This document shows, piece by piece, positions 2,766-57,571 of a stretch of 64,000 bases of DNA; position 1 is the first letter of the stretch, and every line of letters begins with the position of its first letter. A program made the translations under genes and the position numbers. Under the pieces are notes generated by a model. That model ran no database searches, was not told the DNA's origin, and saw nothing but the letters and a program-made list of their open reading frames with translations. Where the stretch lies: sequence record PQ416618.1; one strand, 5' to 3'. This DNA comes from Escherichia phage vB_VIPECOMC06.

Positions 2766-3110
2766 ATGAATAAGCTGAATATTATTAACGAACTTCGTAA
2801 ATGTGCAGAACCTACTCAGGAAGGATGGGATATTTGGTACCACGGGGCTTATTTAGGGACAATTGTAAAGATTAAAGCTGGGTTATATTTAATTATTCGC
2901 GAAAATTCTGAATTCCCTAATGGAGTAGCTCCTGGCGGTATACGTAAAAACTACATGGCAGCGATCAGTTCATTTGTTGATGCAGCTTACGAAATCTATA
3001 AAGAAGATTATAAAGAATATCAGCAGTCACAACCGGTTATTCGTTCGATTGGTGTAAATAAACAAGCACAAAAATCTATTTGGCAACGTATTAAGGAATG
3101 GTTTAAATGA
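2766..3110 (+). CDS. Hypothetical early protein (motA.1 position)
   Basis: 114-aa ORF, tightly packed, overlapping stop/start with next ORF. Confidence 0.6.
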
Positions 3111-19538: not shown

Positions 19539-19561
19539 AAATAAAAGTGAAGGAGAATAAA

Positions 19562-21257
<1,696 letters not shown>

Positions 21258-54298: not shown

Positions 54299-55579
54299 TT
54301 AATCAATAATAATTTTAGGCAATTTAACACCGAGTAAAACAGACAAGTCTGAACGTCCTGCCATTTTATCCATGTCCCCACCATCAATTATTCTCGCTTC
54401 TTTTTCATCTTTTGCTACTGTGTAAGGATTTGCTGATAAAGCATATCTAACCAATAATCCGATAGATGGTTGCAAGCTTTCTGGATCAACTACGACTTTA
54501 AATGCACCGACATGTTCCGGGTCATCTAAATCTACTCCTTCAGTGTATGGAGCATAAAAGACGGACCCTACAATTTCTTTTTCGCCGATATTTTCTACAA
54601 CACCCACAATAACATAATCTAACGGACTGTTGGTATCGCAGTAAAGAGGTAATCCATTTGCCAAGAATCCATAAGCATTTTGTGAAAGATACTTGTCATC
54701 TTCTGGCTTATGTTTTAACCAACCGGAAGCAGCAAGAATAGCAGCTGCACGAGCTGAGGCTACACAAAACGTTGCAGTATAAGTTGTCTCTTTTTGAATG
54801 TGTGATACCATTTCACACACCATTCGATATAACGAACGACCTGCTTCTGGAGCGGATGCATAGCTCAAGTCAATAAATCCGGTGTCAGTAATTCCAGTAA
54901 CTTTATAACGTTTCGATACAGTAATTAAAGACTGAAGAATATCTTTATTAATTTCATCAGCCATTTCAGTGGCAAGCAAATCTTCTAAGAAGTTAGGGGC
55001 ATCAAATCCATTCGCTTCCAAATCTTGCGCTAATTCAACCGTGAGGCCAGTTTTAAGTTTACGAGATTTGACTGAAGTTTGCCATTTATTAATCTGGAAT
55101 CTTGCATCAGCAATTTCGCTACCAGAACTTTCAAATTTGCTTGTTACCGCTGCATCTGAAAATAACCGTACCTTTAAATGAACGACTGCAATCTGAAGAG
55201 CTAATTCTAGATCACTTTCTTGAATATCTGCAAATGGTGTATCTTCTAACACTTTATAGACGATATTATTATATTTGAAAAAATCGCCTTTATTTAGTGT
55301 GTCTTTTGATTCTTCTGTGAGCTCAGTAATTTTTTCTCGGTCTACATATCCAACTTCGCCTGCATAAGTAGCACCAGTTTTAAATGTGAATTCGTTATCT
55401 GGGTTAAGATATTTGATACCATAAAAAGCAGCAACAGGTTGATTAGTTCTTTGTGTTGCTACAATGTCAGAATATATTAATTTAGTCGTAGCGCGAGTCA
55501 AAGCAACGAGATTTGGGCGACCGATTGAGTTGCTAGTAGACGTTGTAGATTCACGCAATAATTTTTGGATTTTACTCAT
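54299..55579 (-). CDS. 24: Capsid vertex protein gp24
   Basis: 426 aa; …LLRESTTSTSNSIGRPNLVALTRATTKLIYSDIVATQRTNQPVAAFYG… matches T4 gp24. Confidence 0.95.
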   Translation of the reverse strand: MSKIQKLLRESTTSTSNSIGRPNLVALTRATTKLIYSDIVATQRTNQPVAAFYGIKYLNPDNEFTFKTGATYAGEVGYVDREKITELTEESKDTLNKGDFFKYNNIVYKVLEDTPFADIQESDLELALQIAVVHLKVRLFSDAAVTSKFESSGSEIADARFQINKWQTSVKSRKLKTGLTVELAQDLEANGFDAPNFLEDLLATEMADEINKDILQSLITVSKRYKVTGITDTGFIDLSYASAPEAGRSLYRMVCEMVSHIQKETTYTATFCVASARAAAILAASGWLKHKPEDDKYLSQNAYGFLANGLPLYCDTNSPLDYVIVGVVENIGEKEIVGSVFYAPYTEGVDLDDPEHVGAFKVVVDPESLQPSIGLLVRYALSANPYTVAKDEKEARIIDGGDMDKMAGRSDLSVLLGVKLPKIIID

Positions 55580-55606
55580 TGCATTTTTTCCTTATGTGAT
55601 ATAGAT

Positions 55607-55614
55607 TATTTATA
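55607..55614 (-). promoter_or_regulatory. Late promoter for gene 24
   Basis: TATAAATA on minus strand about 28 nt upstream of gp24 start. Confidence 0.7.
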
Positions 55615-55620
55615 AAGATT

Positions 55621-55654
55621 GTTTACAACGTATTTGGTATGTGATACTATAGAC
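55621..55654 (+). promoter_or_regulatory. Early promoter upstream of ORF 55681 (inside late head module)
   Basis: GTTTAC … GATACTATAGAC. Confidence 0.65.
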
Positions 55655-55680
55655 TTATCAACTACAGAGGAGTAAACAAA

Positions 55681-55950
55681 ATGACTAAAGCACGTTTCTT
55701 ACGAGATACTTTAAAAGTTCTGGAAGCTGAAGCAGTTAAGTTAGTAGAAAAATATGGTGCAAAAGTTAATGGTAATGCCTTCAACAAAGTATGGATGAAA
55801 GTTGATTCTGAAGCTCGAGCTAAAGGTTATTGGGCCACTGATAAACTTGCATCATTCAAAAACAAAGATGGTTCTCCAGCATATGTCCAAGAAGGTATGC
55901 CTAATTGGCAAAATATTTTGAAAACTTACATCGAAATTGCACAGAAATAA
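55681..55950 (+). CDS. Hypothetical early protein, 89 aa, embedded between late genes 24 and 23
   Basis: ORF with GAGGAG RBS and own early promoter; opposite strand to flanking head genes. Confidence 0.55.
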   Translation: MTKARFLRDTLKVLEAEAVKLVEKYGAKVNGNAFNKVWMKVDSEARAKGYWATDKLASFKNKDGSPAYVQEGMPNWQNILKTYIEIAQK

Positions 55951-55960
55951 AACCAAAAAT

Positions 55961-55978
55961 GGGAGACCGAAGTCTCCC
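55961..55978. terminator. Bidirectional terminator between ORF 55681 (+) and gene 23 (-)
   Basis: GGGAGACCGAAGTCTCCC flanked by A runs. Confidence 0.7.
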
Positions 55979-56002
55979 AAAATAAGATTTAATCAATTAA
56001 GA

Positions 56003-57571
56003 TTAGATGCCTTTTACATATACACGGCGGAAGTAAGCGTTCTTACCAAGGCTGTTCAGGATAGACGGCATACCGGACTGGATGCGAGCACCTGGAGCCT
56101 GCAGGGAACTTTCAGCAAACGGGTTAACACCGATACCGTAACGAGTTTTAAAGCCCATTACCGGCTGGAAGTTCTTAGGATCGGAACCACGCAGTGGGGT
56201 AAGTGCAACGTAAGGAGCATAGTAAATACCTGCATCCATTTCGTTAGCGCCTTTGTAACCAACGGTAAAGTAATCCTGTTTAGCATACTGGTCGATGTAT
56301 ACGCGGTACTTACCACCAAGTACACCGGCAAATACAGACTTAGTAGTGTCGGTATTAAAACCAGAAGCCAGACCCTGTGCAGCGTAAGAAATACCAGTAT
56401 CAACTGAAGCCAGTACGTTAACTACGTTACGGGAAGCGATAATGAAGTTACCTTCACCACGACCGGTTTGACGAGCAATTTCAACTGCTTCTTTATCAAT
56501 CTGGAACAACAGAGCTTTAAAGCTTTCACCGGCCCAACGAGCACCACGGATATCAATCGGGTCCTGGAAGTCAAATACACCAGCTTTAGAACCAACGATA
56601 TTAGTCATACCAGATTTACCAACCTGAGCGGAGTAGTTAATCCAGTCAACAACTTCACGGTTGATTTCCAGCATAATTTCAGTAGCAAGAATACCACTCA
56701 GTTCAGCATCAGCATCCATACCGTGTACTGCACGGAGGTCTTGTGCCAATTCGATGGAGTAAGCTGCTTTCAGCTGACGAGATTTAGCTTCAATAACTTG
56801 TTTGTCGATACGGAAGCCCATTTCGTTCCATGGGTTATCGGTAGAACCGTTGAAACCTTCCTGAAGCTCGGCGATAGAAGTAGCCATACCTTCAGCGATT
56901 TCTACCAGTACACCAGCTTCCATTTGTTTCTTAATTTCAGCATCCAGTTTAGTTGCATCGGTAGCACTAGCATCGATTGTTACTACAGCAGAAGCTTGTA
57001 GATACACAGTACCAGTGTCCTGGAAGAAGTGAGTATAGATATCACCTACAACGGTTTGTGTGCTAGCAGCCAGAGCTGGGAATTTCTTAGCAGCACCCTG
57101 ACCAGAGAACATCGCGTCTGGAGCATACATCGGATGGAAAGCTTCTTTAGCGTCAGCAGCGATAGGGTCTTTACCATATACTGCACGGAGAGCAAATACC
57201 TGACCGGTAGGGCTGTTCATAGGCTGAACACCACAAATATCGAAAGCGATCAGATTAGGAATAGCACGACGAACCATACCCATAACTGCCGGCCCAATCT
57301 GGGTTACTGCACCGGAGGTTTGACCTGCTGCGATGTTCTGAGCATTATAACCGTGGTCACCACCAATTTCAGCTTCGGTCAAGAAAGAACCAAATGCCTG
57401 AGCGATTTTCTCGTCTTTATATTCAGGGGATACTTCGAAATCTTTTTCCTGGTTTTCGAAGATTTTAGCGATAATAGCCTGCTTGCTATTAGCGATTTCC
57501 GGCAGGCCTTCACCTTCCAGCAGTTCTTTCCATTTGTCTACGAGCTGAGCTTTAGTTTTGATAGTAGTCAT
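56003..57571 (-). CDS. 23: Major capsid protein gp23
   Basis: 522 aa; MTTIKTKAQLVDKWKELLEGEGLPEIANSKQAIIAKIFENQEKDF… nearly identical to T4 gp23. Confidence 0.97.
   Translation of the reverse strand: MTTIKTKAQLVDKWKELLEGEGLPEIANSKQAIIAKIFENQEKDFEVSPEYKDEKIAQAFGSFLTEAEIGGDHGYNAQNIAAGQTSGAVTQIGPAVMGMVRRAIPNLIAFDICGVQPMNSPTGQVFALRAVYGKDPIAADAKEAFHPMYAPDAMFSGQGAAKKFPALAASTQTVVGDIYTHFFQDTGTVYLQASAVVTIDASATDATKLDAEIKKQMEAGVLVEIAEGMATSIAELQEGFNGSTDNPWNEMGFRIDKQVIEAKSRQLKAAYSIELAQDLRAVHGMDADAELSGILATEIMLEINREVVDWINYSAQVGKSGMTNIVGSKAGVFDFQDPIDIRGARWAGESFKALLFQIDKEAVEIARQTGRGEGNFIIASRNVVNVLASVDTGISYAAQGLASGFNTDTTKSVFAGVLGGKYRVYIDQYAKQDYFTVGYKGANEMDAGIYYAPYVALTPLRGSDPKNFQPVMGFKTRYGIGVNPFAESSLQAPGARIQSGMPSILNSLGKNAYFRRVYVKGI

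Follow-up and report, generated by a model that had tools for sequence, protein, structure and literature searches.

The window analyzed here, a stretch of 64,000 nucleotides of Escherichia phage vB_VIPECOMC06 (PQ416618.1), belongs to a Mosigvirus (RB69-like) and shares 99.8% DNA identity with PhAPEC2. We investigated the junction between capsid genes 24 and 23, which both lie on the minus strand and encode proteins with 94.8% (gp24) and 94.3% (gp23) amino acid identity to their T4 counterparts. The gap between them holds a small gene on the opposite strand, together with the following features.

54299..55579, minus strand: gene 24 (capsid vertex protein), 426-aa ORF, gp24 in the PhAPEC2 annotation; left flank
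55580..56002: intergenic gap between genes 24 and 23, 423 bp
55588..55593, minus strand: ribosome-binding site AAGGAA of gene 24, 8 nt before its ATG, read from the sequence
55614..55607, minus strand: T4-type late promoter TATAAATA of gene 24, 27 nt before its ATG
55621..55650, plus strand: T-even early-type (sigma-70) promoter, predicted; −35 GTTTACA, 17-nt spacer, TG-extended −10 TGaTACTAT
55667..55672, plus strand: ribosome-binding site GAGGAG of the small ORF, 8 nt before its ATG, read from the sequence
55681..55950, plus strand: ORF of 89 aa with ATG start, homologue of RB69ORF188c/189c (PHROG 6003)
55950..55979, minus strand: intrinsic terminator of gene 23; 8-bp stem, UUCG loop, U-run on the minus-strand RNA
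56003..57571, minus strand: gene 23 (major capsid protein), 522-aa ORF, so named from the PhAPEC2 annotation; right flank

The first-pass annotation had described a plus-strand early promoter, ribosome-binding site and ORF, antisense between genes 23 and 24, and a minus-strand late promoter of gene 24 in the same region. All of these elements were recovered, and the promoter–ORF arrangement exceeds what chance would give. The late promoter was also predicted in RB69, as Pl:109573 (Nolan et al. 2006); its TATTTATA was invariant in all junction states, empty ones included, and the block TTTCCTT in the gene 24 ribosome-binding region was kept in every junction aligned. The gene 23 of phage 04086, which looks truncated, is intact, and its appearance reflects an annotation fault.

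The early-type promoter and the late promoter stand back to back, 7 nt apart. In a promoter scan, the early boxes (TTTACA at 55622–55627, 17 nt, TACTAT at 55645–55650, with TG at 55642–55643) gave 9 of 12 matches plus the TG. Using the T4-type early consensus from PMC1524935, we found GTTTAC-N14-18-TGnTAnnAT 12 times in the window, every time on the plus strand (12/12), against 0.07 occurrences expected. The promoter of the ORF likewise has a GTTTAC −35, a TG-extended TAnnnT −10 and an A/T-rich upstream region, and lies on the early strand. Its −35 and extended −10 boxes were kept across 10 divergent junctions, T4 among them, despite scrambled spacers; these unrelated spacers came from Mosig-, Dhaka-, Gapriver- and Tequatrovirus loci as well as metagenomic loci. 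An early promoter at the same locus in RB69 had been predicted independently by HMM (Pe:109605; Nolan et al. 2006). We regard the element as a predicted early-type promoter, and the consensus match together with the omics data for T4 segD (see below) suggests early timing.

Downstream of the ORF lies a hairpin with arms TGGGAGAC/GTCTCCCA at 55960–55979, the only inverted repeat within 55560–56020; no stem-loop occurs at the promoter. The first-pass annotation had called it a bidirectional UUCG terminator. The hairpin does fold on both strands (−16.8 and −13.5 kcal/mol on the minus and plus strands, z about −4.2 and −4.5), but a terminator was called on the minus strand only, where the UUCG loop is followed by the tail UUUUUGGUUU; read on the plus strand, it begins 9 nt after the ORF stop and has a CGAA loop and the tail AAAAUAAGAUUU, which lacks a U-run. 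The hairpin, which is also present in empty junctions, belongs to gene 23, and it is not demonstrably bidirectional. RB69 has a terminator predicted in 2006 at this place ("23-><-RB69ORF188c"; Nolan et al. 2006), and the counterpart hairpin in Gaprivervirus VR20 has T-runs on both sides. On the plus strand, no canonical terminator follows the ORF, so transcripts may read through antisense to gene 23.

The ORF encodes a protein of 10.1 kDa with a pI of 9.6 and matched PHROG 6003 over its whole length (E = 2.1e-45, residues 1–89 against profile positions 1–90 of 90). The first-pass annotation had allowed for an ORF that is not conserved in relatives; instead, tblastn placed the family in 239 phage records, of which about 117 have an intact copy with ≥95% identity, with frameshifted or truncated copies in RB69, mogra and 310Ecol104PP. 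The GGAG of the ribosome-binding site was at the same position in all homologous cassettes. Within allele classes, dN/dS was 0.06–0.18; between classes, dS was saturated. On the basis of the PHROG match, the 239 records, the low dN/dS and a confident AF2 model, the ORF is a real gene under selection. It is also dispensable, and compared with its neighbors it evolves two to four times faster: identity between the window and QL01 was 33% for the ORF, 69% for gp24 and 83% for gp23. Syntenic copies of the ORF occupy the 23/24 junction in Mosig-, Dhaka- and Gaprivervirus, as well as in a single Tequatrovirus; most Tequatroviruses lack it, although their gp23 and gp24 are ~95% identical to those of the window. 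Elsewhere, family members occur as stand-alone units in unrelated phage contexts, within arrays of small early-type genes and with no capsid gene facing them. A conserved gene partner was considered and rejected, as no neighbor was common to the different contexts.

The AF2 model (pLDDT 88.9) is a helix–helix–β-hairpin–helix, whose N-terminal helix is integral to the fold (pLDDT 93–98). The first-pass annotation had assigned the ORF to no recognizable family and had proposed profile and structure searches. Those searches agree with it insofar as no functional family emerged; the sole family match was PHROG 6003, which has no assigned function. Pfam gave nothing above the cut-off (DUF4859 fell below it at E = 0.003), NCBIfam and PADLOC gave no significant match, and a profile search of PDB sequences reached a best E of only 0.026. 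Foldseek of the model against the PDB returned no match at E ≤0.001; a few winged-helix domains appeared at probability <0.2 and TM about 0.25. In BFVD, the sole significant fold match was an 88-aa member of the same family (TM 0.77, E = 1e-5). Family alignments showed a conserved core of M1, K3, F6, an N-G-N motif at 30–32, N35 and Q70; of these, M1, K3, F6, G31, N32, N35 and Q70 look structural and offer no clue to catalysis or binding. Two large proteins from an exhaustive HMM search, P0022 (E = 1e-15) and P0024, were rejected as spurious because they are Big_2/Ig-repeat and filamin-type repeat proteins whose scores were summed over 9–11 weak repeats and which are all-beta, as opposed to the helical model. 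Among the other sequences from the family search, P0020 is a chimeric short contig, and the JGI name of P0006, "NADPH-dependent curcumin reductase CurA", is a misannotation. A literature search by locus tags, accessions and PHROG id of the family found nothing on function, transcript, protein or phenotype.

We then compared the 23/24 junction across T4-like phages, as the first-pass annotation had suggested. Four states were found: empty, ORF, ORF plus a SegD-like endonuclease, and promoter plus segD, as in T4. The commonest is the empty junction of about 85 bp. As the first-pass annotation stated, a seg-type endonuclease gene occupies this junction in T4: segD lies there, in the same orientation. 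The further idea of a hotspot into which different cargo is swapped held only in part. The junction is variable, but its cargo is not freely exchanged; just two types were found, the ORF family and the SegD-type endonuclease, and segD appears to sit inside the ORF cassette. ORF and endonuclease stand in tandem in 38 records, where the endonuclease ATG follows 3 nt after the ORF stop, under the same promoter and without its own ribosome-binding site; over its full length, this endonuclease shares 57% identity with T4 SegD. About 200 of the 239 ORF-bearing records have no endonuclease, and segD without the ORF occurs in T4, T6 and about 50 other records. In LF82-1, a Mosigvirus backbone carries a replaced tract of about 1.1 kb that begins exactly after the ribosome-binding site and ends within the last ~90 nt of gene 23; this endonuclease-bearing tract has its own Dhaka-type ORF allele.

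In T4, the cassette promoter and 5' leader are kept before segD, whereas the ORF body is missing. The best promoter match upstream of segD, TTTACA-17-TGaTATTAT, is positionally homologous to the promoter in the window. The T4 leader also bears a short resemblance to an ATG...TAAAATG fusion. Edgell et al. (2010) could identify no segD-specific promoter in T4, while omics data class segD as "early RNA, middle protein", with SegD peptides detected (PMC9697503 supplement). With an early-type promoter conserved at this position, early RNA and protein being made, the T4 data fit a cassette model better than the earlier view of a promoterless, barely expressed segD, and T4 segD thereby gains a testable account. 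Since ORF and endonuclease stand in tandem under one promoter in 38 records, and since T4 keeps the cassette promoter and leader before segD, SegD is better understood as having invaded the ORF cassette, not as an alternative independent of it. As for the direction of events, T4 may have lost the ORF, or a promoter standing alone may have acquired segD.

Taken as a whole, the 23/24 gap is probably explained by a self-contained early cassette that carries an accessory ORF and also serves as a landing site for SegD. The cassette would consist of an early sigma-70 promoter, a ribosome-binding site and one small gene, inserted between the gene 24 late promoter and the gene 23 terminator and running opposite to the late capsid operon. 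Unmodified host RNA polymerase would initiate near 55657 early in infection and transcribe the ORF, whose translation would yield a basic, soluble 10-kDa helix–helix–hairpin–helix protein; late in infection, TATAAATA would drive gene 24 in the opposite direction. For a GIY-YIG homing endonuclease of the SegD type, the same cassette may act as both landing site and expression platform. The ORF product most likely acts early as an accessory protein, binding a macromolecule of the host or the phage (in host takeover, counter-defense or exclusion), as suggested by its being dispensable, fast-evolving and encoded singly in several phage contexts that are unrelated. This is our best guess, drawn from generic traits only (small, basic, early, fast-evolving, sporadic), and a capsid component is unlikely.

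The same insertion against the late operon could instead act through its RNA. An early transcript antisense to gene 23 ("anti-late" RNA) might damp or delay capsid expression, with the ORF incidental. In T4, early promoters lying within late regions are known to produce anti-late RNA, the want of a U-tract terminator past the ORF on the plus strand makes antisense read-through into gene 23 plausible, and the promoter is kept in T4 even without the ORF. Yet the coding sequence is under strong purifying selection (dN/dS as above), ribosome-binding site, ORF length and protein fold are all conserved, and homologues are found in phages with no capsid gene opposite them. Most T4-like phages, moreover, have no promoter at all at this junction, and the T4 promoter precedes a translated gene. 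We therefore consider a primarily RNA-based role unlikely. A role of the protein in the head, whether in assembly or as a protein that is internal or associated with the scaffold, encoded beside its partner genes, would suit the position between genes 23 and 24 and a product that is small and basic, as T4 internal proteins are. Such T4 proteins are expressed late or in the middle period, carry a cleavable N-terminal sequence for capsid targeting that ends in L/I-x-E, and are present in heads. Its N-terminus, M-x-K-x-x-F with VLE/A at 13–16, loosely recalls a capsid-targeting sequence and a gp21 cleavage motif, and phrog_8765, a family named "internal virion protein", matches weakly (E = 0.09). 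That match is not significant, however, the N-terminal helix is integral to the fold, and the Glu of the putative cleavage motif becomes Asp in Dhaka-type alleles. The ORF also lies on the opposite strand behind an early-type rather than a late promoter, is absent from Tequatroviruses with nearly the same gp23 and gp24 (about 95% identical), and has homologues that elsewhere sit in arrays of small early-type genes. A head protein thus appears very improbable.

The remaining two alternatives concern the endonuclease. The first-pass annotation had raised the possibility of a degenerate endonuclease fragment, and site and orientation are indeed those of T4 segD, with the ORF adjoining a SegD homologue in the 38 tandem records. 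As a decayed remnant or accessory domain of a SegD-type endonuclease, however, the ORF is effectively refuted: hhalign against T4 SegD gave a probability of 1.2%, Pfam gave no GIY-YIG match, the predicted fold is not GIY-YIG, and neither the PDB nor BFVD offered an endonuclease-type match. Where both occur, they are separate complete genes, and purifying selection acts on the ORF in roughly 200 endonuclease-free genomes. These genomes also bear on a working partnership, in which the ORF product would be a regulator, target-site protector or specificity factor of the endonuclease and would stand alone only after endonuclease loss. The 3-nt gap without a separate ribosome-binding site suggests translational coupling, and the LF82-1 tract brought its own ORF allele into a Mosigvirus backbone. 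Nevertheless, the endonuclease is missing from the great majority of ORF-bearing records, segD does without the ORF in T4, T6 and others, no endonuclease adjoins the family members of other phage types, and co-transfer is expected anyway through co-conversion of flanking DNA. We consider such a partnership improbable.

The accessory early cassette can be extended into a bolder and more tentative reading, which we regard as possible although somewhat doubtful. The cassette would be the original resident of the T-even 23/24 junction and the "host gene" invaded by SegD; T4 segD would be an orphaned remnant in which promoter and leader were kept and the ORF body was deleted; and the ORF product would act early, as a fast-evolving effector directed at a function or defense system of the host, with a fold unseen in solved structures. 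If true, the orphaned-remnant part would account for a long-standing anomaly of T4, namely a wrong-facing endonuclease gene reportedly without a promoter.

The ORF itself is already known: it is annotated as hypothetical in >200 records, and its RB69 promoter and terminator were predicted in 2006. The window is therefore of little weight on its own, holding one of many small T-even early ORFs without assigned function. It has modest value, first as a compact and clear-cut example of an accessory gene placed antisense within the capsid module, the most conserved one, and second through the account of T4 segD given above. The four natural junction states occur in otherwise near-identical backgrounds, which makes isogenic comparison and phenotype screening easy, for instance with panels of defense systems.

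Among known systems, RB69ORF188c/RB69ORF189c, PhAPEC2_170, VR7ORF190c and QL01 gp177 (PHROG 6003) are the same gene as the ORF in the window, all hypothetical proteins, and the PhAPEC2 record annotates its own copy as "similar to RB69ORF188c". Unlike in the window, two frameshifts break the gene in two in the reference record of RB69, so the 89-aa form is not visible there. The T4 segD locus shares with the window the junction, the orientation against genes 23 and 24, the back-to-back late and early promoters and a similar leader, and it abuts the same gene 23 terminator hairpin. It differs in having no small ORF and in its unrelated cargo (hhalign probability 1.2%, as above). In the 38 other records, by contrast, the SegD homologue follows the small ORF and does not replace it as in T4.

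PeSL are composite promoter and stem-loop motifs that flank an ORFan on both sides in hyperplastic regions (Arbiol et al. 2010, PMC2839356; Comeau et al. 2014, PMC4122927). Like a PeSL cassette, the 23/24 cassette is one orphan ORF behind a strong sigma-70-like early promoter of its own, accompanied by a G+C-rich stem-loop; it occurs in some close relatives and not in others, and it is transcriptionally insulated from its neighbors. Compared with a PeSL-flanked ORFan, we found the promoter upstream of the orphan ORF, and neither a stem-loop at the promoter nor motifs on both sides. The one stem-loop in the gap is the gene 23 terminator; the ORF stands between it and the promoter, and the site lies within the conserved capsid core module. 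Lambdoid morons are genes inserted, with a promoter and a terminator of their own, between two genes of a late operon. Classical morons differ from the 23/24 cassette in that their expression from the prophage benefits the lysogen, whereas the window belongs to a virulent phage and its cassette has a T-even early-class promoter and no terminator of its own. What the two share is the overall design: a solitary accessory gene with an autonomous promoter that sits, oppositely oriented, between two conserved structural genes; close relatives lack it, and virion structure does not depend on it.

The interval 55580-56002 is the exact gap separating genes 24 and 23, and all the features that the first-pass annotation had named were found in it, including a plus-strand early promoter, a ribosome-binding site (RBS) and an ORF, and the minus-strand late promoter of gene 24. 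Over 55400-56200, Escherichia phage vB_EcoM_PhAPEC2 was 99.8% identical to the window, and about 107 other records of Mosigvirus, the genus of RB69-like T-even phages, were at least 99% identical. The window's gp24 and gp23 were 94.8% and 94.3% identical to those of T4, respectively.

Features of the 23/24 junction
54299..55579, minus strand: gene 24
55614..55607, minus strand: TATAAATA, gene-24 late promoter, 27 nt before the gene-24 ATG
55622-55650, plus strand: sigma-70-type site TTTACA-17-TACTAT with TG extension
55667-55672, plus strand: GAGGAG, RBS of the small ORF, 8 nt 5' of its ATG
55681..55950, plus strand: small ORF, 89 aa, ATG start
55960-55979: G+C-rich hairpin, 8 bp
56003..57571, minus strand: gene 23

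The hairpin had been described as a bidirectional UUCG terminator. It does fold on both strands (plus strand: −13.5 kcal/mol, z −4.5), but the terminator scan made just one call, for the minus strand, where the loop is UUCG and the tail UUUUUGGUUU; the plus-strand version, with loop CGAA and tail AAAAUAAGAUUU, lacks a U-run and is thus not a canonical terminator. Because the same hairpin is also present in phages with a gene-free 23/24 gap, it belongs to gene 23 and not to the inserted cassette.

Judging from its homologs, the small ORF is a real gene. It matched PHROG 6003 (function unknown) end to end (E 2e-45), and tblastn found it in 239 phage records (about 117 full-length at ≥95% identity and 119 at 30–38% identity), so it is by no means absent from related phages. 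Distant copies occupied the same place and orientation in Gaprivervirus VR20, Dhakavirus QL01 and 04086, Tequatrovirus KIT06, and four metagenomic T4-like contigs. Nei–Gojobori dN/dS was 0.06–0.14 among Dhaka-type alleles and 0.12–0.18 for more distant pairs, with synonymous sites saturated between allele classes. The product (10.1 kDa, pI 9.6) is hydrophilic, and a confident AlphaFold2 model (pLDDT 88.9; 14-sequence alignment) predicts helices at 3-25, 31-48 and 76-88 and a beta-hairpin at 56-70. Residues M1, K3, F6, G31, N32, N35 and Q70 are invariant across the family. The family itself is tiny: 5.8 billion proteins contained about 25 clusters of it at 90% identity, and an exhaustive HMM search yielded no more than seven credible representatives.

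Homology searches assigned no function to the small ORF. Pfam returned only a sub-threshold match to DUF4859, and NCBIfam, PADLOC and a profile search of PDB sequences gave no significant match, which agrees with the earlier remark that the ORF has no recognisable family, PHROG 6003 being the only one. Profile–profile comparison with T4 SegD, the GIY-YIG homing endonuclease encoded at the same junction, gave a probability of 1.2%, which argues against a degenerate endonuclease fragment. Two giant Ig-repeat proteins that the exhaustive HMM search also returned (database proteins P0022, E 1e-15, and P0024, 5e-7) were rejected as artefacts, their scores being summed over 9–11 weak repeat matches. 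These scores, and the JGI name of one family member (P0006), "NADPH-dependent curcumin reductase CurA", are traps for automated annotation.

A generic promoter scan found 2 sites against 2.3 expected, which is not above background. The T-even early consensus GTTTAC-N14-18-TGnTAnnAT is far more specific: it has 12 matches in the 64-kb window, 12/12 on the plus strand, with 0.07 expected by chance, and 55621-55650 is one of them. The 11 other exact matches, also on the plus strand (2055, 2644, 4568, 15085, 19056, 25524, 26708, 30066, 33519, 33965 and 40293), look like a convenient map of the window's candidate early promoters. For ten junctions whose ORFs are only 30–70% identical, we made an alignment of the leader, the stretch between the start of gene 24 and the ATG of the ORF. 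The late box TATTTATA was invariant, followed 5–7 nt later by a −35 box, (G/T)TTTAC or GTGTAC, and an extended −10 box, TG(T/A)TA(C/T)TAT (CATAAT in VR20), with GGAG 7–9 nt 5' of the ORF ATG; the 17-nt promoter spacers had no common sequence. Boxes that stay constant amid scrambled sequence are good comparative evidence for a functioning promoter, probably kept by selection. For RB69, early promoter Pe:109605, late promoter Pl:109573 and terminator "23-><-RB69ORF188c" were predicted by Nolan et al. (2006; PMC1524935 supplements), and the cis-acting part of the finding is thus already in the literature.

The junction had been proposed as a hotspot where accessory cargo is swapped. Span arithmetic on a distant BLASTN search, single-locus inspection and joint-spanning queries resolved four states.

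States of the 23/24 junction
i, empty: 81–96 bp; gene-24 RBS, TATAAATA and gene-23 terminator; most Tequatroviruses, Gelderlandvirus S16, Jiaodavirus KPV15 and others; up to about 598 records (an upper bound, as the ≥80%-coverage count takes in at least one ORF-bearing record, G28)
ii, promoter and ORF: about 420 bp; Mosig-, Dhaka- and Gaprivervirus, Tequatrovirus KIT06; about 200 records
iii, promoter, ORF and SegD-like GIY-YIG endonuclease: about 1090 bp; LF82-1, JM10, 04086, mobillu and others; 38 records
iv, promoter and segD, no ORF: 812 bp; T4, T6 and others; 53 records

T4 does have a seg-type endonuclease gene here, and the junction is variable, but a straight swap does not describe it, since ORF and endonuclease stand in tandem in 38 records. 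The first-pass interpretation is therefore partly supported: accessory ORF and junction variability hold, whereas the bidirectional terminator does not. In the empty 96-bp junction of Salmonella phage S16 (L012:649-744), TTGTTTTACA lies directly past the late promoter, where the window has the cassette −35 box (TTGTTTACA), with neither −10 box nor ORF downstream; this may be the footprint of a deleted cassette, or chance. Upstream of the junction, gene 24 is present as two tandem paralogues ("capsid vertex protein I and II") in Dhakavirus, Gaprivervirus and related phages from metagenomes (L002:1-2394, L003:1-2399, L016:1-2401, L019:1-2397), and as a single gene in the window and T4. The 04086 record (OR842557, L004:3502-5061) shows gene 23 as a 1110-nt truncated CDS with a 414-nt ORF on the opposite strand; since tblastn recovers an intact 519-aa gp23, the record is wrongly annotated and there is no insertion.

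The small ORF is missing from most Tequatroviruses despite near-identical capsid genes. It is frameshifted into two ORFs in mogra (L005:1501-1769) and its product is cut to 64 aa in 310Ecol104PP (P0019); both are independent natural disruptions and fit a dispensable gene. In the RB69 reference record (NC_004928), two frameshifts break the gene, hence its annotation as two fragments, ORF188c and ORF189c. There (L023:5211-5633; record 109210-109632), a +1 frameshift in a mismatch cluster is followed about 150 nt on by a −1 frameshift, all other bases being near-identical to the window; the split could be a lab-strain pseudogene or a 2003-era sequencing error. Between the window and QL01, identity was 33% for the ORF, 69% for gp24 and 83% for gp23. 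Away from the junction, family members occurred in three settings with no neighbour in common: a different site (2501-2767) in a T4-like metagenomic contig (L021); long arrays of small unannotated genes, all pointing one way, in phages of roughly 140–150 kb (ABPH49, L015, L025, L026); and between tail and replication genes in a siphovirus-like contig (L014). The L021 member is divergent from baseplate or tail genes, and two genes past it, beyond one ORF (2782-3036), lies a DUF5417 protein 52% identical to a window ORF (about 19562-19780; window 19547-19810).

With anatomy, conservation and promoter homology established, we propose that host RNA polymerase would transcribe the ORF during the opening minutes of infection, and that the small basic protein would serve host takeover, counter-defence or exclusion by binding a macromolecule of the host or the phage, taking no part in head assembly. 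Sporadic distribution, fast between-lineage divergence, within-lineage purifying selection and dispensability are typical of accessory early genes, and none of these traits points to a target. All rival readings are weaker. A capsid role, which the flanking genes might bring to mind, is contradicted by the promoter class, the strand of the gene and its lack in phages whose capsids are near-identical. Selection on the protein contradicts a role as antisense RNA alone, and about 200 genomes without the endonuclease and 53 without the ORF contradict an obligate partnership with SegD. As a discovery the element is ordinary: an uncharacterised accessory gene that had been annotated before and whose regulatory signals were predicted in 2006.

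Strictly speaking, the cassette is no PeSL-type element: the gap has one stem-loop, 3' of the ORF, and this is gene 23's terminator. Its possible specialist value lies in its relation to segD. The state iii endonuclease is 57% identical to T4 SegD over the full length, and its ATG lies 3 nt past the ORF stop without a Shine–Dalgarno sequence of its own, which suggests dependence on the ORF's promoter and translational coupling. LF82-1 has a Mosigvirus backbone with 97–100% identity to the window across genes 24 and 23, rising to 100% for the initial 93 nt of the junction; directly after GAGGAG it switches to a Dhaka-type ORF allele and then the endonuclease, returning to Mosigvirus sequence about 90 nt into the gene 23 3' end. 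The replaced tract of about 1.1 kb (L007:2494-3576: ORF, SegD-like endonuclease, terminator and the final ~90 nt of gene 23) is the pattern expected of homing with co-conversion, or of plain homologous recombination in conserved flanks; with its left breakpoint exactly after the RBS, it looks like a homing or co-conversion scar. The Dhaka-type cassette of KIT06, a Tequatrovirus, shows that exchange crosses genera too.

In T4 (NC_000866), a strong match to an early-type promoter, TTTACA-17-TGaTATTAT, lies on the segD strand at the site homologous to the window promoter, directly upstream of segD (L006:7254-7282; record 107253-107281), and is the best sigma-70-type match in the junction (10/12 plus TG). 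The T4 leader (…TATACAAACGGAG…) resembles that of a metagenomic cassette, L016 (…TATACCAACAAACGGAG…), and the segD start region ATGTTTAAAATG resembles the ORF start codon joined almost directly to TAAAATATG, which in LF82-1 joins ORF stop to endonuclease start. At the annotated segD start (L006:7221-7240) the RBS is only 2 nt upstream. Of its two ATGs, the second lines up with where the LF82-1 homologue starts (L007:2760-2775), and the first may be left over from the start codon of the deleted ORF. segD is the sole T4 homing endonuclease gene oriented against its neighbours, with no specific promoter identified and very low expression assumed (Edgell et al. 2010, PMC2988022), and time-resolved omics from 2022 classed it as "early RNA, middle protein", with listed intensities of SegD peptides increasing as infection proceeds (PMC9697503 supplements). 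Together, these points agree with a putative course of events: SegD would have inserted into the small-ORF cassette, facing the way the cassette does, and T4 would afterwards have lost the body of the ORF and kept the promoter. The shared early promoter and the tandem ORF–endonuclease operon in 38 genomes would thus offer a simple, testable explanation of the orientation, supposed promoter lack and observed early expression of T4 segD.
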